DNA of 10,432 nt, from the UHGV virus genome UHGV-0214677. One strand, given 5' to 3'. A program made the position numbers and the translations under genes. Origin of the DNA: a virus. This document shows, piece by piece, positions 1-10,432 of the stretch (positions within the stretch are counted from its first letter, which is position 1; every line of letters starts with the position of its first letter). The notes under the pieces were generated by a model, which did not search any database, was not told where the DNA came from, and saw only the letters and a program-made list of their open reading frames with translations.

Positions 1-201
1 ATAATGTCGCTACCGCAGGAAACGAAAGAGGAAAAGGAATTTCGCCATTGTATATGGCTTGCAGAGAAAGAAGAACGCGAGCGAATTTACCAGACATCAA
101 TCCGACCATTCCGCAAAGCCACATATACCCACTTCCCTGAATATATCGACCCGCGCCTGCGTAATTACCGCTCACGCTATGGCGCTATCAGTAATGACTG
201 A
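1..201 (+). CDS. Hypothetical prophage protein, probably 3' part of a gene that begins upstream of the window
   Basis: Frame 1 is open from nt 1 with an ATG at 4 and stop TGA at 199-201. The translation ([16 protein letters not shown]...) is protein-like, and the next gene follows 10 nt later with its own SD. No family recognised. Confidence 0.4.
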
Positions 202-211
202 GGAATTTACC

Positions 212-376
212 ATGAGAGGACTTGCATACAATCCCGGCATTCTTCCGGCAGAAATGATTATTCGCCAACGCGTAAAGCCAATGCCATCGAGAGAGGAATT
301 GCTTAAGAGAAATAGTTTCGGTTCTGTTAATGACAACAAATATCTGAATGCGATGTGGCGGAGTGGGAAAAAATGA
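212..376 (+). CDS. Small hypothetical prophage protein (54 aa)
   Basis: ATG at 212 preceded by GAGGA (200-204). Stop TGA at 374-376 overlaps the ATG of the next gene (ATGA). The longer ORF-track call 59..376 would overlap the previous gene out of frame and has no SD. Confidence 0.4.
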
Positions 377-972
377 AACAAATGTCACTAATTGAGATGG
401 ATGGTTTTCTGAAAGGTAAATGCATCCCAAGTGATTTAAAGGTTAACGAAACAAACGCTGAGTATCTGGTGCGTAAATTTGCTGAAGCGGAGGCCAAGAT
501 TTCGGCTCTGTCCGAAGACCACCAGAAAGCGATTGAGTCAATTAAGCAGGCTGATGCGGCTGTTAAGTTGGCACACGAGAAGTTTTCGGCGCTGGCGGCG
601 GAGAATGCGGGGCTGAAGGGTGCGTTTGATAAGCCTCAAGCATATCTATCCTGGCACGCTATTCCACCAAGCTGGGAAGACCCGCTCCCATGCGGTGAAT
701 ATCTTGATGTTCATGACGAGGCAGGACACAAAAACTCCGATGGAACTGATTGCTGGCCGGTATATGCCAAGCCAGAAATCGAGACCACAGCCACCTACGC
801 ATTCCTGGCTGAAGTACGGGCGCAGGGGGTAGAGATGTACGCAGATAACCTCGACAACGGAGCAGACGACGCAGAACGAGGTGGTTTTGATTATGCCGTT
901 AAGTTTCTACGCAGTGAAGCGTCTGGTGTACGTTTGTTCGCCGACCAGCTTCGCAAAGGAGGCAACCAGTGA
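373..972 (+). CDS. Hypothetical prophage protein
   Basis: ATG at 373 preceded by GGAG (359-362), in frame with the ORF-track call 355..972. Stop at 970-972 overlaps the GTG start of the next gene. No family recognised. Confidence 0.55.
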
Positions 973-1829
973 GCAAGATTGATTATCAGGCACTGCGTGC
1001 TAAGGCAGAAAAAGCAACGTGTGGCGAGTGGTCTCTCGAGTATGGAGAGGGCCGATTTGATGGTGATGATGCACTAATTCATCGCGAGGCTGCTGGATAT
1101 ATTCCCATTTGCAGAATTGAAGGAGCGCATCCTGAAAGCGGTTTCGATGAAGATTTCCAAATAGAACAGCAGGCCAATGCTGAATTCATCGCCGCAGCCA
1201 ATCCGGCTACCGTCTTGGCGCTGCTGGATGAACTGGAAAGAAACCAGCAATACATCAAACGCCGCGACCAGGAGAACGAGGATATTGCGCTTACGGTTGG
1301 GAGGCTGCGCGTTGAGCTGGAAGGCAAAGACAGCAAAATAGCCAATCTTACCGCCGAACGCGATGCTCTTCGTGAAGGTGAGATGGGCGACGCTAGGCAT
1401 AGCAACACACGGGCCGCAGCTGATATCTACTTCCAACTGGTCGAGGAGTGCGAAATTCCTGCTGGCGGTTCTCTGGTCGAGTACGTTGACGATATGCGCG
1501 AGAAGCTGGAAGCCGCAGAGAAACGTCTGGCAGAACTACAATCTAAATCCATGCGACCTGTGGCGTGGATGAGAAGCGACGATATTACTACATTTGGACC
1601 AATATTCACCAAGAACGAAAACTATGCTGTTGAGCAGTGGGGAGATAATGCGGTAGCGCTTTATGCATCCCCAGTTAATTTCAAGTTGGCATGCTTCACT
1701 GACGAGAGAAATCTTAAGTACATCAATGAACGAGGAAGGGAGACATCTCTCATCTGGAGCGAAAGAAATTCAGAAAATGGTGATGTTCAACTTTTCCGCG
1801 CCGCAGGCATTCGCATCAAAGGAGAGTGA
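969..1829 (+). CDS. Probable Ead/Ea22-like prophage protein
   Basis: 286-aa ORF with GTG start at 969 preceded by AGGAGG (957-962). N-terminal 'DYQALRAKAEKATCGEW' and a central coiled-coil-like acidic region resemble the Ead/Ea22-like family of lambdoid prophages (recalled, not searched). Confidence 0.65.
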   Translation: MSKIDYQALRAKAEKATCGEWSLEYGEGRFDGDDALIHREAAGYIPICRIEGAHPESGFDEDFQIEQQANAEFIAAANPATVLALLDELERNQQYIKRRDQENEDIALTVGRLRVELEGKDSKIANLTAERDALREGEMGDARHSNTRAAADIYFQLVEECEIPAGGSLVEYVDDMREKLEAAEKRLAELQSKSMRPVAWMRSDDITTFGPIFTKNENYAVEQWGDNAVALYASPVNFKLACFTDERNLKYINERGRETSLIWSERNSENGDVQLFRAAGIRIKGE

Positions 1830-1830
1830 T

Positions 1831-2118
1831 ATGGCAACTTTGCAGGAATTAATCGACCTGACGCCGGAACAGGAAAAAGCGTGGAATCGCCTTGTGAAGG
1901 CTGTAAAGGATTTCAGGGCATCCGGAGGAAAGTTTTATAGCGTCCTGGACACGCTGAGCGCATACAACGGTGAGCACGTTGCCAGCATTGATAACGATAA
2001 GGGCTACCACACTGCAAGCGTCTATATGCCTAGCATTGATGCGCCAGGGCTAACCAGTTGGGCTGATGATTGGCACGGCATCACGCTGAAAGATGGCGTT
2101 GAAGTGGATGAGGACTAA
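1831..2118 (+). CDS. Hypothetical prophage protein (96 aa)
   Basis: ATG at 1831 two nt after the previous stop, preceded by GGAGAG (1821-1826), in frame with ORF-track 1663..2118. The upstream part of that ORF overlaps the previous gene and is unlikely to be translated. Confidence 0.5.
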   Translation: MATLQELIDLTPEQEKAWNRLVKAVKDFRASGGKFYSVLDTLSAYNGEHVASIDNDKGYHTASVYMPSIDAPGLTSWADDWHGITLKDGVEVDED

Positions 2119-2121
2119 CCC

Positions 2122-2814
2122 ATGACCACTATTACCAAAGAGCGACTACTGACAATCAAGCAGTGGCGCGAAACATACGGACCTGGTAGCAACGTTGTAC
2201 TGCCAGCAGAAGAAGCGGAAGAACTGGCACGAATTGCACTGGCATCGCTGGAAGCAGAACCGGTGGCGTGGATGCGTGATGACGCAGATGGTCGTGAGTA
2301 TAACGCTCGCAATGAATTTTCTGATGGAGGGAAAGGAATTCCGCTATATCGTGTGCCGCCAGCGCCGGAAGTGCCGGAAGAAATATATTGGCAGGATGCG
2401 CCAGTTGAAGGCAGCATCAAAGCGGCTGCATACGCTACAGACTGGAACGCCTGCCGCGCCGCCATGCTTCATGGTGCCAAACCTGTAAGCCAGACTTACA
2501 AGTTAAACGAGCTGTCGGGCAACTCTCCGGTAACTCCGGATGGTTGGATAAGCTGTAGTGAGCAGATGCCTGTAATCGGCGAGCTAAATTGGAGAACTAG
2601 TTTTCCTTTACTGGTTACGTGTGAGATCGGCGTTATACCTGCTTATTACGGCTTTGTGAGCGTTAATGGTGATAGGCATTATGGCTTTATGGAGAGTCTT
2701 AAATACGGAGACGATAACGGCAACCATCCTCAAACTAATGAATATGGTCTGATTAGCAATGTCACACACTGGATGCCTCTACCAGAACCGCCTCAGGAGG
2801 TTAACCGTGGCTAA
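2122..2814 (+). CDS. DUF551-family prophage protein
   Basis: 230-aa ORF with ATG at 2122. The C-terminal '...THWMPLPEPP' matches the signature I recall for DUF551 proteins of enterobacterial prophages. Stop overlaps the next gene's start. Confidence 0.65.
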   Translation: MTTITKERLLTIKQWRETYGPGSNVVLPAEEAEELARIALASLEAEPVAWMRDDADGREYNARNEFSDGGKGIPLYRVPPAPEVPEEIYWQDAPVEGSIKAAAYATDWNACRAAMLHGAKPVSQTYKLNELSGNSPVTPDGWISCSEQMPVIGELNWRTSFPLLVTCEIGVIPAYYGFVSVNGDRHYGFMESLKYGDDNGNHPQTNEYGLISNVTHWMPLPEPPQEVNRG

Positions 2815-3088
2815 TCTGCAACTTGCCGTTAAAGGTGAATACTTCGATGCCATGATTCGCGGGGAGAAAACGGAAGAGTATCGCTTGTGTAATGACTACT
2901 GGAATAAGCGAATTATGTTCCGGGAGTATGACCGCCTGATTATCACGAAGGGATATCCGAAGCGCGACGACTTCAGTCGCAGAATTGATGTCCCGTATGA
3001 CGGATATGAAATCAAGACAATCACACATCCCCACTTCGGCGATAAACCGGTAAAGGTATACGCGATAAAGGTGAATATCAATTGCTAA
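2807..3088 (+). CDS. Hypothetical prophage protein, possibly ASCH/PUA-like fold
   Basis: GTG at 2807 preceded by a perfect AGGAGG (2795-2800) with 6-nt spacing, in frame with ORF-track 2759..3088. Overlaps the previous stop by 8 nt. The fold assignment is a weak guess. Confidence 0.5.
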   Translation: MANLQLAVKGEYFDAMIRGEKTEEYRLCNDYWNKRIMFREYDRLIITKGYPKRDDFSRRIDVPYDGYEIKTITHPHFGDKPVKVYAIKVNINC

Positions 3089-3089
3089 A

Positions 3090-3199
3090 TTAGTAGCATA
3101 GCATAAAGATGCTTGCATTAATGAAGTGTGTATAATAACGCCTCATCAATAGTAAACTACTGAAATAGCAAAAAATGCATATTAAAGAGGATTCGAAAA
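3090..3199 (+). promoter_or_regulatory. AT-rich intergenic region with candidate sigma70 -10 element (TATAAT at 3121-3126)
   Basis: Consensus TATAAT hexamer in an AT-rich spacer upstream of the 3200 ORF. The nearest -35-like TTGCAT (3104-3109) is only 11 nt away, so the promoter architecture is unresolved. Confidence 0.3.
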
Positions 3200-3391
3200 T
3201 TGAAAATGTTCATGCAAATAGACAGACGCATAGATATTAATGGCAATTCATACTTAGTTAGATGCGAAGAGAGGCCTAACGGTGAGTGGCGTGTATATGA
3301 TATTGACCGTAAGATCAATATCAGCACCATGAACAAAGACACTGCCTTTGATGAATGGAAAGCTGAAGCTAAAAAACAACATAATTCGTAG
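3200..3391 (+). CDS. Small hypothetical protein (63 aa)
   Basis: ORF with TTG at 3200 (ATG alternatives at 3206 and 3212) preceded by AAAGAGGA (3184-3191). Lies in the AT-rich region. No family recognised. Confidence 0.4.
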   Translation: MKMFMQIDRRIDINGNSYLVRCEERPNGEWRVYDIDRKINISTMNKDTAFDEWKAEAKKQHNS

Positions 3392-3471
3392 AATTACAAA
3401 AACCCTAACCAATTGATGGATTTCTTTTATCTGAACTCGCTACGGCGAGTTTTGTTTTATGGAGATGATAA

Positions 3472-3639
3472 ATGCACTTCCGAGTCACAGGTGAATGGAA
3501 TGGAGAGCCATTCAACAGGGTTATCGAAGCAGAGGACATCAACGACTGCTATAACCACTGGATGATATGGGCGCAGATAGCACATGCAGACGTAACCAAT
3601 ATTCGAATTGAAGAACTGAAAGAACACCAAACCGCCTGA
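3472..3639 (+). CDS. Small hypothetical protein (55 aa), below the ORF-track length cutoff
   Basis: ATG at 3472 preceded by GGAG (3461-3464). Translation MHFRVTGEWNGEPFNRVIEAEDINDCYNHWMIWAQIAHADVTNIRIEELKEHQTA. Stop TGA at 3637-3639 sits in the loop of a canonical terminator hairpin. Confidence 0.5.
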   Translation: MHFRVTGEWNGEPFNRVIEAEDINDCYNHWMIWAQIAHADVTNIRIEELKEHQTA

Positions 3640-3655
3640 TGGCGGTTTTTTATTG
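3630..3655 (+). terminator. Rho-independent terminator
   Basis: Stem ACCGCC (3631-3636) / GGCGGT (3641-3646) with loop TGAT, followed by TTTTTTATT. Confidence 0.7.
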
Positions 3656-3696
3656 CCTGATTTGCAGGTTCGATTCCCTATTCGGAGATAGCACTC

Positions 3697-3897
3697 ATGC
3701 AACACGAACTACAGCCTGATTCACTGGTTGATTTGAAATTCATCATGGCCGATACTGGCTTTGGTAAAACCTTCATCTACGACCGTATTAAGTCCGGCGA
3801 CTTGCCAAAAGCCAAAGTTATCCACGGGCGAGCAAGATGGTTATATCGTGACCATTGTGAATTCAAAAATAAGCTCTTAAGCCGCGCCAATGGGTAA
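3697..3897 (+). CDS. AlpA/Xis-family DNA-binding protein (probable excisionase or integrase regulator)
   Basis: 66-aa ORF with ATG at 3697 preceded by GGAG (3684-3687). The pattern 'LKFIMADTGFGKTFIYDRIKSGDLPKAKVIHGRARWLYRDHCEF' matches the AlpA-family helix-turn-helix signature. Sits immediately upstream of the integrase on the same strand. Confidence 0.8.
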   Translation: MQHELQPDSLVDLKFIMADTGFGKTFIYDRIKSGDLPKAKVIHGRARWLYRDHCEFKNKLLSRANG

Positions 3898-4109
3898 AAT
3901 AGCGGGTAAAATATTTCTCACATCTAAAAAACACCATTCCAATCAATCCCCTGCCGCCTCAAGTAGATGTCTGCAGGGGACACCATTTACACCTCTCCTG
4001 AAATCTACCATATCCCATAAAAAGCCTTTATAATCAGTATATACCCTTACTTATGTTACTCAAATAGTCGCCGTGATTCTCCTCAGGGGTACGTAAATCA
4101 AGTCACATT

Positions 4110-4159
4110 TGGGGGCCTATTTAGGGGCACATATTGGTCAATCTATTGCGAGGCCCCCA
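4110..4159 (+). promoter_or_regulatory. Perfect 9-bp inverted repeat spanning the integrase ribosome-binding site
   Basis: TGGGGGCCT (4110-4118) and AGGCCCCCA (4151-4159) are exact reverse complements 32 nt apart. The right arm contains the GAGG Shine-Dalgarno 7 nt before the int ATG. Confidence 0.3.
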
Positions 4160-4160
4160 G

Positions 4161-5351
4161 ATGCCACTGACAGCTCGACAAGTTGAAACAGCCAAACCCA
4201 AAGATAAAATTTATAAAATTGCCGATGGTGGTGGGCTCTACCTGCAGGTCAATCCTAACGGCTCAAAGTACTGGCGAATGAAGTACCACTATGCAGGGAA
4301 GGAAAAGAAACTATCATTTGGCACCTATCCAACTATTACATTGGCTGAAGCTCGCAAACGTCGGGATGAAGCCAAGAAAATACATGCCGATGGTAAAGAC
4401 CCCGGTGAAGTCAAGAAAGCTGAAAATCTTGAGAAAAACCTTTCTGAAGGAAGAACTTTTGCCACAATCGCCACCGAGTGGTACAACGCAAAAGTTTCAG
4501 GCTGGTCGGCCAGCTACGCTGATTATGTCGACAGAGCATTCAAAAATAATGTGTTTCCCTACATTGGAAACAGACCCATCAGTGATATCGAACCTCTTGA
4601 ACTTCTCGCAGTTCTTCAGCGTATTGAAAGCCGCGGAGCCTGCGAGCTAGCTAATAAAGTTCGCCAACGATGTGGTGAAGTGTTTCGGTATGCCATTGTT
4701 ACAGGTAGGGCTCGATACAATCCAGCCTCTGATCTGGTTATAGCAATGAAAAGCCATAAACGAACACATTACCCATTCCTGCTTCCTCCTGAACTACCAG
4801 AGTTTTTGTACAAACTCGAAAACTACACCGGCAGTATTGTAACCCGTGAAGCTACAAAATTGTTGATGCTCACAGGGCTGAGGACCGTAGAATTACGTAT
4901 GGGGGAATGGTGTGAGATCGATTTTTCCCAAAAAATATGGGAAGTGCCTCCGACCCGGATGAAAATGAGGAAGGAACATATTGTTCCCCTCTCAAATCAG
5001 GCAATTCGGTCTCTCCAAATCCTTAAAGAACTGACGGGAAGATACAGATACATCTTTGCCGGAAGAAATGATGTTAACAGGCCTATCAGCGATGCAAGCG
5101 TCAATATGGTTTTGAAGAAGATTGGCTATGACAAAAAAGCTACCGGGCATGGTTTTCGTCATACAATGAGTACTATTCTACATGAGAAAGGATTCAATAG
5201 TGCATGGATTGAAATGCAACTTGCACATACGGACAAAAACAGCATTCGTGGTACATACAACCATGCTCGTTACCTTGAAGGAAGACGAGAAATGATGCAA
5301 TGGTACGCTGACTACCTTGATGCTATTCGAAAAGATTCCCCAGCTATATAA
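4161..5351 (+). CDS. int: P4-family (DUF4102-type) tyrosine integrase
   Basis: Typical N-terminus 'MPLTARQVETAKPK...GGGLYLQVNPNGSKYWRMKYHYAGKEKKLSFGTYP...LAEARKRRDEAKK'. C-terminal catalytic signature present: R in 'GLRTVELR', 'HGFRHT', and Y in 'IRGTYNHARY'. ATG at 4161 with SD is preferred over the in-frame TTG at 4134 used by the ORF track. Confidence 0.9.
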   Translation: MPLTARQVETAKPKDKIYKIADGGGLYLQVNPNGSKYWRMKYHYAGKEKKLSFGTYPTITLAEARKRRDEAKKIHADGKDPGEVKKAENLEKNLSEGRTFATIATEWYNAKVSGWSASYADYVDRAFKNNVFPYIGNRPISDIEPLELLAVLQRIESRGACELANKVRQRCGEVFRYAIVTGRARYNPASDLVIAMKSHKRTHYPFLLPPELPEFLYKLENYTGSIVTREATKLLMLTGLRTVELRMGEWCEIDFSQKIWEVPPTRMKMRKEHIVPLSNQAIRSLQILKELTGRYRYIFAGRNDVNRPISDASVNMVLKKIGYDKKATGHGFRHTMSTILHEKGFNSAWIEMQLAHTDKNSIRGTYNHARYLEGRREMMQWYADYLDAIRKDSPAI

Positions 5352-5489
5352 TCACTTGATTTTAAAGGCTGACTTAACGAAATACCTTGATAGTCATTTA
5401 TCAGTAATCTAATAGTTAAGTCAGTCATAATCCCCTAAGTATCACTCCTCAATCAGTTTCAGCACATTGTTGACCTGTCTCCAGTATTC

Positions 5490-5913
5490 GATACAACCAT
5501 CAGTCAGCCTGCTGGCACGACGTTGCGACAGACCCGTTGCCTCACACATGACTTCCACGGCTTCCCACTTCTGTTCTGTCGTCAGAATTTCGGTCCAGAG
5601 CTACCTGAAGTACCTCCTTATCCAGCATGGTTTTGGCGAGCAGCGTCTTGAGGGGTCGTTCTCCTCTTCAGGTGTCTTAAGCCGCTTTACCTCAGGGACT
5701 TCTATTCCACCAAACTTCGGCGCCCGGTGTAGAAAGTAGCGTCTGAAATAGCATTCTTGCGGCAGAGTTCCCGGGCAGAAACGCCGGCTACGGCCTCGCG
5801 GAGGATACTGATAATCTGTTCGTCGGAAAACACTTCTTCATGGGGATACCCTAACGTTGCTGATGAAGACATTACTTACATCGTGGTATATTAATAAATG
5901 TGGGAGCAGGTCA
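5490..5913 (-). mobile_element. Degraded IS3-family insertion sequence remnant (IS407-group-like orfA with frameshifts, truncated at its distal end)
   Basis: The - strand reads MSSSATLGYPHEEVFSDEQIISILREAVAGVSARELCRKNAISDATFYT... from ATG at 5870-5872, then breaks frame. Other frames continue with '..EVPEVKRLKT..', '..LLAKTMLDKEVLQVAL..' and '..VEVMCEATGLSQRRASRL', typical of IS3-family OrfA and the OrfB N-terminus. A terminal-repeat-like TGACCTGCTCCCA (reverse complement of 5901-5913) lies 41 nt outside the ATG. The inner boundary near 5490 is approximate. Confidence 0.6.
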
Positions 5914-6058
5914 ACTCCACAATGCAGTCCACTGAGGGAAGAGATCATTAGGTGCAAAGGATCTACATTAGTGGCTGAAAACAACTAGAATTTAGAATTA
6001 AAAAGTTTTATCCTATATTAGTAAGTATTTTTGTTAACACTTTTGTAAGGATACTTTT
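5914..6058 (+). promoter_or_regulatory. Very AT-rich leader and probable promoter region of the SIR2-like/DUF262 operon
   Basis: About 145 bp of AT-rich non-coding DNA between the IS remnant end and the first cassette gene, with several TATA-like hexamers (for example TATATT near 6015) and an AAGGA SD at 6044-6048. No single -35/-10 pair can be assigned confidently. Confidence 0.25.
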
Positions 6059-7108
6059 TTGAGCAGCGAAAAAAAAAAGAAAGTTGGGTTAATGCTTGGG
6101 AATGGATTCACTATTGACCTCCTTAGCAAAATGGACAAACTTGATATAATTGACCCATCCGATCTATTTAAATATGGCGATATGGTTAAGTGGCCCGCCA
6201 CTGGGGAACCCGGTTTTCTTTCTGCTCGATATTGCCCAAATCTATGGCGATTGGGTGCAAGACCCGGGCTAAATAGAACCGCATCATATCAAATAATAGA
6301 AGAATTAATTACAGTAATAAATTTATATGCAACTCTACCTCCAGAAACAATAAAGAAGAAAAATCAGGCAAGTCATACTCCATTGTCAAACATTTACATT
6401 TATGCTTATCAAGAATTAGTTTCATATTTAAGGGAGCTTTTCATTGATTATAACGAAAAAGTTTCCTCTGAAGATCTACGTAAGTTAGAAAGTGGCTGGC
6501 GAGACTATTTGATGAAACTGGACAAAAACGAAAACATAGAACGAGTTGATATTATAACTTATAACTATGACATTTATCTTGAGCGCCTTCTTGATTTACT
6601 TAATATCAGATTTGACATCCCAAACATATCTGACGGGAATGCAAAGTTTAAAATATACAAACCACATGGCTCTATTAGCTTCTTGTATGAAGGATATATG
6701 TCAAAAGATAACTACAATATCCAAAAAGAGTTATCTTTAAATAATGGCGACATATCAAAATTCGAATGCCGGCATGAAAACTTAAGCCTTTACATGCCAT
6801 TAATTCCAATAATACCGCCAGCAGGAGAAGCTCATCGTTATGCCCAAAACTGGGCTAATTCAATTAAAGAGTCTATTGAAGCGACGATGGAGTCGTACAA
6901 CCCAAACGATGATTTCTTCATTTGTGGTATTTCATATTGGCATGTTGATCGTGCCGAAATTGATGCAATAATACGCAAAATAAACAGTGACGTTAATGTT
7001 AGAATGATTAATCCAGGAAATGTTGATGGTTTAAGTGCTATACTTGGAATGGTATTTAATAGTTATGTTCATCATTCATCATCTGAAGTTTTAAAGGAGC
7101 TTGCCTAA
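6059..7108 (+). CDS. SIR2-like (DHS-like NAD-binding, SIR2_2-type) protein; candidate NAD+-consuming effector
   Basis: 349-aa ORF. Three motifs occur in the order expected for SIR2-family defence proteins: a Gly-rich N-terminal loop 'VGLMLGNGFTIDL', 'DIITYNYDIYLERL' (compare the TTNYD motif; predicted Asn ~169) and 'KIYKPHGSISF' (compare the KLHGS motif; predicted His ~203). Start is TTG at 6059 (SD AAGGA at 6044-6048) or the in-frame ATG at 6092. Stop TAA at 7106-7108 overlaps the next start. Confidence 0.6.
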   Translation: MSSEKKKKVGLMLGNGFTIDLLSKMDKLDIIDPSDLFKYGDMVKWPATGEPGFLSARYCPNLWRLGARPGLNRTASYQIIEELITVINLYATLPPETIKKKNQASHTPLSNIYIYAYQELVSYLRELFIDYNEKVSSEDLRKLESGWRDYLMKLDKNENIERVDIITYNYDIYLERLLDLLNIRFDIPNISDGNAKFKIYKPHGSISFLYEGYMSKDNYNIQKELSLNNGDISKFECRHENLSLYMPLIPIIPPAGEAHRYAQNWANSIKESIEATMESYNPNDDFFICGISYWHVDRAEIDAIIRKINSDVNVRMINPGNVDGLSAILGMVFNSYVHHSSSEVLKELA

Positions 7109-8136
7109 TGGAAATTTTAAAGCGGGATTCAAACAGTATTAATATTGCTTCCTTTTGGGAGGGCTTTTCATTAGGCAAATTTAATTTTGATCCTCCTTAT
7201 CAAAGAGATAGTGTTTGGGATGAAGAAAAACAATCATTCTTTATAGATAGTATACTACGTAACTATCCAATTCCCCCTATATTTCTCCATCAAAAAATTG
7301 ATGATGACACCGGAAGAATCACGTTTGAAGTTGTTGACGGAAAACAGAGGCTCACTGCCATTGTTAATTTTATCAATGGCCAAATAACATCAGCAAGTGA
7401 GGAAGAAGATGATGAATTGACTGGTGTGTTTTTTTCCGATTTATCAACTTCTAAATATGCAGAAGTTAAAAAATTATTCTGGCGATATCAGATGCCTATA
7501 GAGTACATTGATACTGAAGACGAAAGAATAATTGATAGTATTTTCGACAGGCTTAACAGAAATGGTGAACGACTTAACGGACAAGAGTTAAGGAATGCCA
7601 AATATCATGATACTGATTTTTATAAAAAAATAGTAGAATATTCACAACGTGAATATTGGCAAAAATTGCTAGAGCACGTTGATAAGAAGAGAATGGAAGA
7701 CAAAGAGTTTGTATCTGAATTGATATTCACGATCCTTGAGGATGAAGTATTTGGTGCAACTCAAGACATAATTGATAGTCTTTACGAGAAGTATTGCACC
7801 AAGAATGGTGATGAAACAAATGAGGCATTTTCTATTTTTGAAAAAACAACTGACTATTTAGTTGATATGAATATTGATTTCAAAAGTCATAAAGCAAGCG
7901 GTGTTAGTCACTTATACGGAATCTTCAGTTATGCACTTTATTGCAGTAACAATAATGTTCCTGTAGAAGAAGCGTCAAATAGACTTTCCACCTTCCTGGA
8001 TAGCTTGTGGGAAAAAGATACACAACATAATGCGGAATTAAGAAGAGAATATAGAAAAACTATGAGTTCTAGCACAAAAAGCAAAACCCAACGCTCACGT
8101 AGAATTGAAGTGCTTTTAAATCTACTTCACGATTAA
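7108..8136 (+). CDS. DUF262 / ParB-like nucleotide-binding domain protein without a C-terminal HNH (DUF1524) domain
   Basis: 342-aa ORF with ATG at 7108 overlapping the upstream stop (TAATG), preceded by AAGGAG (7093-7098). N-terminal 'FDPPYQRDSVWDEEKQSFFIDSIL' and 'EVVDGKQRLTAI' match the two signature motifs of DUF262 (the GmrS / SspE N-terminal ParB-like domain). No His-Me/HNH-like motif is visible in the C-terminal ~140 aa. Confidence 0.75.
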   Translation: MEILKRDSNSINIASFWEGFSLGKFNFDPPYQRDSVWDEEKQSFFIDSILRNYPIPPIFLHQKIDDDTGRITFEVVDGKQRLTAIVNFINGQITSASEEEDDELTGVFFSDLSTSKYAEVKKLFWRYQMPIEYIDTEDERIIDSIFDRLNRNGERLNGQELRNAKYHDTDFYKKIVEYSQREYWQKLLEHVDKKRMEDKEFVSELIFTILEDEVFGATQDIIDSLYEKYCTKNGDETNEAFSIFEKTTDYLVDMNIDFKSHKASGVSHLYGIFSYALYCSNNNVPVEEASNRLSTFLDSLWEKDTQHNAELRREYRKTMSSSTKSKTQRSRRIEVLLNLLHD

Positions 8137-8148
8137 ACTATATAATAG

Positions 8149-8177
8149 TAGGAGTGAACTTCGCTCCTGCTTTTCTC
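8149..8177 (+). terminator. Possible weak intrinsic terminator downstream of the DUF262 gene
   Basis: AGGAG (8150-8154) ... CTCCT (8164-8168) can form a short stem, followed by GCTTTTCTC. The stem is short and the loop long, so this is tentative. Confidence 0.3.
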
Positions 8178-8788
8178 ACTCTATCTTTTATTATTTCTCT
8201 TTGAGATATGAAGTAATACTTTAAAAATATAAATCACATTCATCGCATATGATATTGTGATATCCCCACATGGTGCATGTTCGTAGTCTATCCCTCAGGC
8301 AAATAATAATAGAAAGTTAACCGAATCAGTTATACTCTCACCCAGATATTAGGATGGCTAAATCAACATGAGTGCAAGGATCGTCTTGGGGGAAACATTG
8401 GCACTGTGTGATGGCTCATCATTAAAAAATCAGTTTATATCAAAAGTAAATGATTACAGAAAAACTATATTTATAGATAAAGAAAAAAGCATTTAATTAC
8501 TTCTTAAATATGATAATCACACTCTGTGAAATGATACTTTGACTTACTTCCAATTATTAAACCACGAGATTCATGCATTACCATAATCATTTAAGAAAAC
8601 AAAAGTCCGGCCTTTGCTCTTATCAACCACTACAATTCATAAAGAAATCCTGTTGATGCAAAAAAAAGACATTGATCACAATATCGAGTTAATCATTTGA
8701 AAGTTTATTACTCACATTGAAAAATTTCTCAGTATCAGATATACCAACGTTGAGGGCTTCCCTCTTACATCTCAAAAGGATAACTATC

Positions 8789-8917
8789 ATGGGTCTTAAA
8801 CCAGGTCCAAAACCAATTGCTAAATCGACAGGAAAACCGGATCAACGCCGACGAGATAATAAAGATACTCCTGGCAACACTCCGGGACTAAAGCCAAGTA
8901 AGTCCACCGGGAAGTAA
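8789..8917 (+). CDS. Small Lys/Pro/Gly-rich hypothetical protein (42 aa)
   Basis: ATG at 8789 preceded by AAGGA (8775-8779), within ORF-track 8717..8917, whose TTG start has no SD. Translation MGLKPGPKPIAKSTGKPDQRRRDNKDTPGNTPGLKPSKSTGK is low-complexity. No family recognised. Confidence 0.3.
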   Translation: MGLKPGPKPIAKSTGKPDQRRRDNKDTPGNTPGLKPSKSTGK

Positions 8918-8922
8918 AAAAT

Positions 8923-8951
8923 CAGGGTATAAATAAGTTATTTATACCCTG
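8923..8951. terminator. Perfect palindromic hairpin between convergent genes, probably the terminator of the - strand gene remnant
   Basis: CAGGGTATAAATAA (8923-8936), G, TTATTTATACCCTG (8938-8951): 14-nt arms that are exact reverse complements. An A-run (8916-8921) on the + strand gives a U-tract after the hairpin for the - strand transcript. Confidence 0.55.
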
Positions 8952-8965
8952 ACTACATATCCAGT

Positions 8966-9861
8966 TTACTGAAGGTGTTTCTGCAGCCAGATGCACGTTC
9001 CTTCTGTATCATACGCCTGTGCCCCATACCCTGTAGCAAGCAAAGTCTCTGGTAAATACTCGTCATATTTATCCAGGTACTTGTCAGGAACAACTGCAGC
9101 AAGCTCAAACTCTGAAGGTAACCCCGACAATAACATTTTCTTAAGTGCACGCTGAACAGAGGCAACGCCTGAGCCCTCTACCTCTATCACACCTGCAAAT
9201 GAACTGGCTTTAAAGCCACAACGTATAAGCAGGGACGTAATTGTATTGACAATTTTATCCCCCATCCACGGGATCACGTAGCAGTTCTGACCACTGGCAA
9301 TAAAACAGTGATTTTGTAGATTGTAGCGTTGGAAGTTGTCACTTCCTTCCGCGAAGAGGCTTCTGGCTGCGGCATCAGCATAATCAACTCTCTTGTTGCC
9401 TACCGCGATACGGTAATCATTTTCCCTGTAGATAGCGAGCATCTCCTGGCGAACAACATCATGAACAGACATCCCGCTACCACTGAATAGTGGTGGCTGC
9501 CCGCCTTTAGTCGCCTCAACATAGATAGCTTTTTTTCAACCTCGATCTCTGTCACTTTCCAGCGCTGTCCGCCGAAGATGATGTGCTGCTCCGGCAAAAG
9601 TGGGGAGTCTACAGGCACTGTGCCAAGAGTTCGGTTTCCCGTTACAATGCGAAACTCCTCAGATGTATTGAATACGGCATAAAACGTGTAGTGATTAATC
9701 AGCTTCTCCCCCTCAGCCCCGACAACTATTTAACCGCTGGCTAGTTGAGTGAGCAGGCCACATGTCCCCATATGTTTAAGCAGACTTTTGAAGTCATTTA
9801 TATCCACATTCCGGAACGGACCTGTCTGGCAAAGTTGTGACCAGAGCTGATCGGCACGAAC
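8966..9861 (-). pseudogene. Disrupted gene of unknown function (C-terminal remnant with frameshift and in-frame stop, truncated by IS insertion)
   Basis: ORF-track fragments 8966..9472 and 9400..9618 are adjacent frames of one reading frame, broken at a 7-T homopolymer (9530-9536). Further upstream the reading continues in the same frame as the 9400..9618 fragment but is interrupted by an in-frame TAA near 9735, and the coding sequence runs directly into the IS end at 9862. I could not assign a family. Confidence 0.6.

Positions 9862-10432
<571 letters not shown>

Follow-up and report, generated by a model that had tools for sequence, protein, structure and literature searches.

A degraded IS1222/ISEhe4-type insertion sequence at the boundary of the integrase module in an argW island

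Introduction

What lies between the integrase gene and the defence-like cargo of an island at argW, and did this intervening DNA take part in bringing the two together? The question is raised by a 10,432-nucleotide stretch of DNA from a virus genome (UHGV-0214677), which is called the window throughout. Between its integrase gene and its cargo lies the relic of an insertion sequence (IS). The relic is ordinary and already known, both as a RefSeq pseudogene and as an RNA element recognised by Rfam. Only its corrected boundaries and their exact match to the boundary of an island module are new here.

Results and Discussion

Organisation of the locus

From position 3971 to its end, the window shares 99.94% identity with the E. 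coli FDAARGOS_1257 chromosome, in which a tyrosine integrase gene adjoins tRNA-Arg beside yfdC, and the order of features is integrase, transposase pseudogene, hypothetical protein, DUF262 protein, DEAD/DEAH helicase pseudogene and IS1203. The features of the window that are needed first are the following:

4134..5351, + strand, integrase gene
5352..5470, + strand, spacer of 119 nt that separates the integrase gene from the IS, part of the conserved integrase module
5471..5913, - strand, whole IS element of 443 bp, a non-autonomous internal-deletion derivative with IS positions 1-412 joined to 1188-1221
5914..5971, + strand, orphan flank of 58 nt from the left inverted repeat to the portable cargo module
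6059..7108 and 7108..8136, cargo genes

The first cargo gene (6059-7108) encodes a weakly SIR2/AbiH-like protein, and its remoter homologues, with 32-42% identity, are spread across many phyla. The second (7108-8136) encodes a DUF262/GmrSD_N protein with a PADLOC match to NsnA (1.9e-39). The two-gene cargo looks like a portable defence pair.

Positions 1-3970 belong to a different element, namely the torI end (right end) of a lambdoid prophage of KplE1/CPS-53 type, and the prophage genes found in 1-3985 encode Ea22-like, DUF551 and ASCH proteins and torI (3697-3897). Prophage and integrase island are joined via a 15-nt copy of the 3' end of tRNA-Arg (3971..3985). Since the prophage ends at this copy, we read the arrangement as two integrative elements in tandem at argW. 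Of the 5426 complete E. coli genomes in the collection, none covered at least 80% of this prophage-island mosaic.

The element is a degraded IS3-family relic of IS1222/ISEhe4 type

Translation of the - strand of 5505..5830 alternated among three frames and yielded an IS3-family OrfA and, after it, the first 29 codons of orfB. The segments of the stitched translation were as follows:

5400..5920, - strand, three frames, in order: FSDEQIISILREAVAGVSARELCRKNAISDATFYTG / FGGIEVPEVKRLKTPEEEN / LLAKTMLDKEVLQVAL / LTTEQKWEAVEVMCEATGLSQRRASRLT

The stitched translation matched Pfam HTH_Tnp_1 (PF01527) with E=1.7e-12, above the gathering score, and the NCBIfam model transpos_IS3 ('IS3 family transposase') with E=6.7e-09. 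The latter score did not reach the full-length cut-off of the model, which is normal for a query that is a fragment. At the level of RNA structure, the Rfam family RF00383 (IS1222 ribosomal frameshifting element) matched 5498..5614 on the - strand over all 118 model positions with 98.5 bits, the gathering score being 45.

For the DNA comparison, four intact relatives of 1221 bp each were aligned to the window by blastn:

Copy on a Pantoea agglomerans plasmid, 89.3% DNA identity, E=3e-148
Copy annotated as 'IS3-like element ISEhe4 family transposase', 88% DNA identity
Copy on a Klebsiella plasmid, 87% DNA identity
Copy on an E. coli plasmid, 82.5% DNA identity

The nearest intact copy was 11% diverged from the window relic, and the nearest annotated name in public records was that of the copy with 88% identity. 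ISEhe4 belongs to the IS407 group of the IS3 family, with a 4-bp direct repeat and TG ends (PMC10425158). The -1 frameshift site of IS1222 is G_CGA_AAG (PMC5009743). The GC content of the relic was 51%, compared with 34% in each flank, and RefSeq labels the region as a 'transposase; frameshifted; incomplete' pseudogene.

Given the Pfam, NCBIfam and Rfam matches and the relatives with 87-89% identity, the decayed IS3-family element is real, well beyond chance, and the assignment of 5471..5913 (-) to a degraded IS3-family (IS407 group) element of IS1222/ISEhe4 type is confirmed. The preliminary description had recognised an IS3-family OrfA on the - strand that loses frame several times; with this the Pfam and Rfam matches, the intact relatives and the 1-nt deletions described below all agree. 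With IS1222/ISEhe4 and the 1221-bp siblings on Klebsiella plasmids, the relic has in common the TGACCTGC.. terminal repeats, a frameshift element of the same kind ((G/C)_CGA_AAG with a downstream stem-loop) and 87-89% DNA identity across its retained 412 + 34 nt. The 88-aa OrfA of this type, with its helix-turn-helix, is represented in the relic by a recognisable but broken orfA.

Against the four relatives, blastn gave two collinear segments, 5913..~5503 and 5507..5471, and in the multiple alignment IS position 1 corresponded to window position 5913. The terminal-repeat-like end reported at 5913 in the preliminary description is genuine: TGACCTGCTCCCA ends at 5913 (-) and occupies IS positions 1-13, which makes it the left inverted repeat. 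Terminal repeats of the TG...CA kind were present, both relic ends aligning to the ends of the four intact relatives:

5900..5913, - strand, left terminal inverted repeat (IRL) TGACCTGCTCCCAC, aligning to positions 1-13 of all relatives
5471..5484, + strand, right terminal inverted repeat (IRR) TGACCTGTCTCCAG, with its outer edge at 5471

The right end of the relic coincides with the end of the integrase module

The tetranucleotides that border the relic are GAGT and ACAA, and none of the four duplication positions agree (0/4). Among the intact relatives, 4-bp duplications were seen at two loci, GTGT at L009 and TCAG at L002. A target-site duplication, which the preliminary description had proposed to look for, was sought by comparing 3-, 4- and 5-bp candidates on the flanks by eye, and none matched. 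A 6-nt inverted match in the flanks (CATTGT / ACAATG) was regarded as chance.

The integrase gene and the 119-nt spacer were present at full coverage in 265 E. coli genomes. About 240 of these 265 carried them at ~96% identity with different cargo, and such genomes represent sister argW islands, in which the cargo consists of a PapB-like gene, other IS3-family copies and an HsdR-like gene. The island types that share the integrase are two only. In blastn alignments to two sister islands (L004 and L006), 3971..5470 was 95.7% identical, and the alignment ended exactly at 5470. The right end of the relic is thus the same nucleotide at which the resemblance to the sister islands stops (5470/5471). 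This provides a landmark for the island: the conserved tRNA-Arg/integrase module ends at 5470, and everything to the right of 5470 is variable, that is, the relic, the 58-nt orphan flank and the portable SIR2-like/DUF262 defence pair.

On the other side of the relic, the flank of the left repeat (5914-5985) was found only in the 27 cargo-bearing genomes, where it was 100% identical and always adjoined either the relic or ISs inserted into the relic. The E. coli genome collection contained no empty site joining the 5470 and 5914 flanks, and the searches gave no ancestral island in which the IS at the 5470/5471 site is intact. The missing duplication, the break in sister-island homology and the restriction of the left flank to genomes with the cargo together indicate that the two sides of the relic did not adjoin each other originally and that the IS end is a breakpoint.

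The pattern of the breakpoint supports an IS-associated event, as an IS-promoted adjacent deletion would leave such a pattern, and so would recombination between two copies of the IS. An active IS copy would have inserted just 3' of the integrase gene, and the flank at its left end would then have been swapped, either through an IS-promoted adjacent deletion or through recombination with another copy, and this exchange would have brought the SIR2-like/DUF262 defence cargo beside the integrase module. The IS would later have decayed in place. The relic is now a passive scar and a landing pad for other ISs. In our judgement the element is very probably a dead, single-copy 443-bp relic of IS1222/ISEhe4 type with this history of insertion, flank replacement and decay. 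Such a picture is one of textbook IS-driven turnover of a defence island and involves no new mechanism.

The best-surviving alternative is a simple old insertion that had no part in the juxtaposition of the cargo, the duplication having eroded and the breakpoint stemming from a later, unrelated replacement of the cargo. The element is indeed old, with a distance of 11% from the nearest intact copy and five indels, and island cargo has other routes of turnover, the cargo module being portable without such an IS. However, erosion sits poorly with flanks that are nearly invariant among the carriers and nevertheless match at none of the four duplication positions, and an event independent of the IS would place the homology break exactly at the IS end only by chance. 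We consider this alternative unlikely.

Insertion followed by flank replacement places the exchange at the IS end, and the position of the cargo itself is a separate matter. The cargo module proper begins at ~5972, 58 nt from the relic, a limit that was set by the start of homology to Klebsiella oxytoca. In a K. oxytoca ICE, the closest homologue of the cargo, with 87% DNA identity (L010 3907-6190), lies between the TraU/DUF1525 and TraC genes; homology to this module ends at window position 8248, and no such IS was present near the cargo homologue of the ICE. The plasmid collection (72,556 plasmids) gave no real match to the cargo, and no plasmid carried the cargo beside such an IS; nor was any donor DNA found in which the cargo adjoins such an IS. 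The preliminary description had inferred that the IS may have captured the AT-rich cargo. This was not supported, as the cargo starts 58 nt away, the K. oxytoca copy has no such IS nearby and no donor was found. What the same description had said of a past rearrangement at the integrase-proximal junction fared better, since there is no 4-bp duplication and sister-island homology breaks off exactly where the right repeat meets the spacer; on this sequence comparison, a past IS-associated rearrangement at that junction is plausible.

Distribution of the relic and later insertions

In a megablast search, 29 of the 5426 complete E. coli genomes carried the relic at an identity of at least 99% (99.6% or higher in these carriers), with one copy each and always at the same locus, and the relic was nearly invariant among these carrier genomes. 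No second related IS match was found by megablast in the listed carrier genomes, and none of the 72,556 plasmids gave a full-length 443-bp match. With one copy per genome, a single locus and none on plasmids, the relic is an immobile scar.

Other ISs have entered or adjoined it. In RM11911 (L005 9632-12848) a block of IS3 and IS100 is located at window position ~5765. An IS3 also adjoins the relic in NCCP 13963, at 5901, and in BKQ37E, at 5874 (L032/L033 ~5000). The defence cargo is gone from both NCCP 13963 and BKQ37E, and IS1 and the fecIRA region are present instead.

A relic with both inverted repeats and a length of only 443 bp resembles a MITE, and a second, independently deleted mini-derivative does exist in 86 E. 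coli genomes, at a different locus; the relic could in this way be a MITE-like miniature element that an intact transposase of IS1222/ISEhe4 type still moves in trans. Like MITEs, it is short (under ~600 bp), bears an inverted repeat at each end and lacks a transposase. Unlike MITEs, it is neither dispersed nor multicopy and has no target duplication, and it still holds a recognisable, broken orfA and is not reduced to repeats. Moreover, its right repeat departs from the consensus of the relatives at 2 of 14 terminal positions. Taken with the single locus, the lack of a second megablast match in the listed carriers and the absence of the 443-bp form from plasmids, these differences make continued movement in trans improbable, and we retain the reading as an immobile relic.

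The second mini-derivative is a relic of the same IS lineage and was located at L003 2508-2960 in an E. coli ICE, where an HNH endonuclease gene and ardC flank it. It was 80% identical to the window relic. Its junction joins IS positions 1-432 to the last 19 nt, and the score of this match was reached by 2 of 1000 shuffles. The two relics have a common design, in which the left end, orfA and the frameshift element are joined to a short right end, and RefSeq likewise treats the second one as a frameshifted partial transposase. They differ in locus and in junction, 432/last 19 nt at L003 vs 412/last 34 nt in the window. Since neither form is derivable from the other, the two deletions are independent. 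This hints that mini-forms of the IS1222 lineage arise repeatedly, the cases being two only. The broader proposal, that the lineage repeatedly yields orfB-less, trans-mobilisable minis of ~450 bp that serve as anchors for swapping defence cargo beside integrases, would go much further, and we hold it to be improbable.

Both ends are retained around an internal deletion

The preliminary description had placed the limit of the element at 5490 and stated that the rest of the IS was lacking. The true extent reaches 5471, by the right-end alignment and the right repeat. The statement on the missing part holds for the DDE portion, which is gone, and does not hold for the last 34 nt, which are retained and include the right inverted repeat. 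The boundary between the two parts of the relic is as follows:

5501..5509, - strand, internal deletion junction, at which IS position 412 (..GGCTG, at window ~5505) is followed by 1188 (ACTGA..), from a side-by-side alignment with the four relatives

About 775 bp were lost at this junction, and the only microhomology visible in the relatives is the 3-nt CTG. To the right of the junction, 5504..5471 (-) aligned to the final 34-37 nt of each of the four intact relatives and ended in ..GACAGGTCA. Compared with the Klebsiella IS at its right end, these last 34 nt gave 30/34 identities. Inside this retained end, at 5471, sits the right inverted repeat TGACCTGTCTCCA, and the right segment ends in ..CAGGTCA, which is the complement of the left-terminal TGACCTG.

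The megablast and blastn matches of the main segment stop at ~5503-5506, as they would in a one-ended stump, with the IS cut after the start of orfB and the DNA to the left of ~5490 unrelated to it. However, the next 34 nt align to the right ends of all four intact relatives with up to 30/34 identities. Furthermore, a scan of the whole window with the repeat consensus, allowing at most two mismatches, gave matches at two sites only, the 5913 end and 5471, and homology to the sister islands resumes immediately after the 34-nt segment, at 5470. A one-ended stump is very improbable on these results. Because of the right-end match and the right repeat at 5471, the relic is a 443-bp internal-deletion derivative and not one-ended, and its annotation should span 5471..5913 and include the two ends.

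Coding remnants and overlapping open reading frames

The coding remnants and overlapping reading frames within the relic are listed below:

5582..5841, - strand, orfA pseudogene with native ATG at 5841-5839 and native TGA at 5584-5582, matching HTH_Tnp_1 and found by tblastn in three segments
5498..5614, - strand, -1 programmed frameshift element of IS1222 type (Rfam RF00383), with its stem-loop largely intact
5505..5591, - strand, first 29 codons of orfB (LTTEQKWEAVEVMCEATGLSQRRASRL), tblastn match to residues 1-29 with 79% identity
5702..5872, - strand, 56-aa ORF with a partial HTH_Tnp_1 match (E=6.7e-07), a product of decay
5467..5739, + strand, spurious 90-aa ORF, antisense, starting 4 nt beyond the element

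Alignment to the intact relatives located three 1-nt deletions that break orfA, at 5831/5830, 5720/5719 and 5654/5653, and showed W->G and M->I substitutions in it as well. One more deletion of a single nucleotide, the fourth, lies at 5588/5587 and takes the G of the slippery (G/C)_CGA_AAG and changes CGA_AAG to CGA_AA-T.

By tblastn, no part of orfB beyond residue 29 was found in the window; the whole DDE catalytic domain is missing. When intact OrfA and OrfB were used as queries, tblastn gave no second orfB piece in the window or in the adjoining 2.5 kb. Across the window, the sister loci and the FDAARGOS_1257 locus of 14.5 kb, tblastn gave only distant matches of 22-27% identity, to further IS3-family members such as IS1203 and IS3. 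The other half of the IS, which the preliminary description had proposed to look for elsewhere, did not turn up, as tblastn and the repeat-consensus scan detected no further piece or ends.

The relic is unlike IS1222/ISEhe4 in several respects: the ~775-bp internal deletion leaves it without a DDE transposase domain, its orfA and slippery site are broken by the four 1-nt deletions, and it is single-copy and not self-mobile, without a 4-bp target duplication. Because the DDE domain is deleted and orfA and the slippery site are destroyed, the relic encodes nothing functional and is not self-mobile. As both the DDE transposase and the target duplication are absent, it counts as a derivative within the IS3 family rather than as a functional member.

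The 56-aa ORF exists because the first 1-nt deletion joins an upstream out-of-frame ATG to the OrfA helix-turn-helix. It ends at the second frameshift, and the C-terminal half of OrfA is missing. Although this frame is open, has an ATG and gives the partial HTH_Tnp_1 match listed above, it is hardly credible that it is expressed as a domesticated small DNA-binding protein with a regulatory role, for the frame is a by-product of a 1-nt deletion, stops at the next frameshift without the C-terminal half of OrfA, and lies in a region that RefSeq treats as a pseudogene. Judged from the reading frame, the 56-aa ORF is probably no gene.

The 90-aa ORF on the + strand crosses the right repeat and the deletion junction and strings three antisense frames together, all of which hold stops in the intact relatives, and no Pfam family was matched. 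As a gene this ORF was ruled out by the chimera of antisense frames and the lack of a Pfam match, in line with the earlier reading of it as antisense noise. In annotation, neither ORF 5467..5739 (+) nor the 56-aa ORF (-) should be called a gene.

A scan of 5300-6120 for promoters and terminators gave merely consensus-level matches, and the sole terminator-like hairpin was the left repeat; a regulatory role was not inferred.

Other features of the window

Just 3' of the integrase stop, a perfect 10-bp inverted repeat, CTGACTTAAC / GTTAAGTCAG, was located at 5369-5378 / 5415-5424 with its arms 36 nt apart, and a pair resembling it is also present in the sister islands with 96% identity. Beyond the DUF262 gene, a stretch of ~830 bp (8137-8965) with a GC content of ~30% and no notable ORF extends to a helicase fragment. 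This fragment (8966-9472, - strand) represents the C-terminal part of a Shango SngC-like helicase (PADLOC 4.9e-30) and corresponds to the DEAD/DEAH helicase pseudogene of RefSeq. It is followed by an IS1203/IS629 copy (9904-10422, - strand) that runs past the window end. A second defence system, Shango-like, appears to have been destroyed here by IS activity. A near-perfect palindrome of 31 nt (8922-8952), detected as a reverse self-match by blastn, is located just downstream of the helicase fragment.
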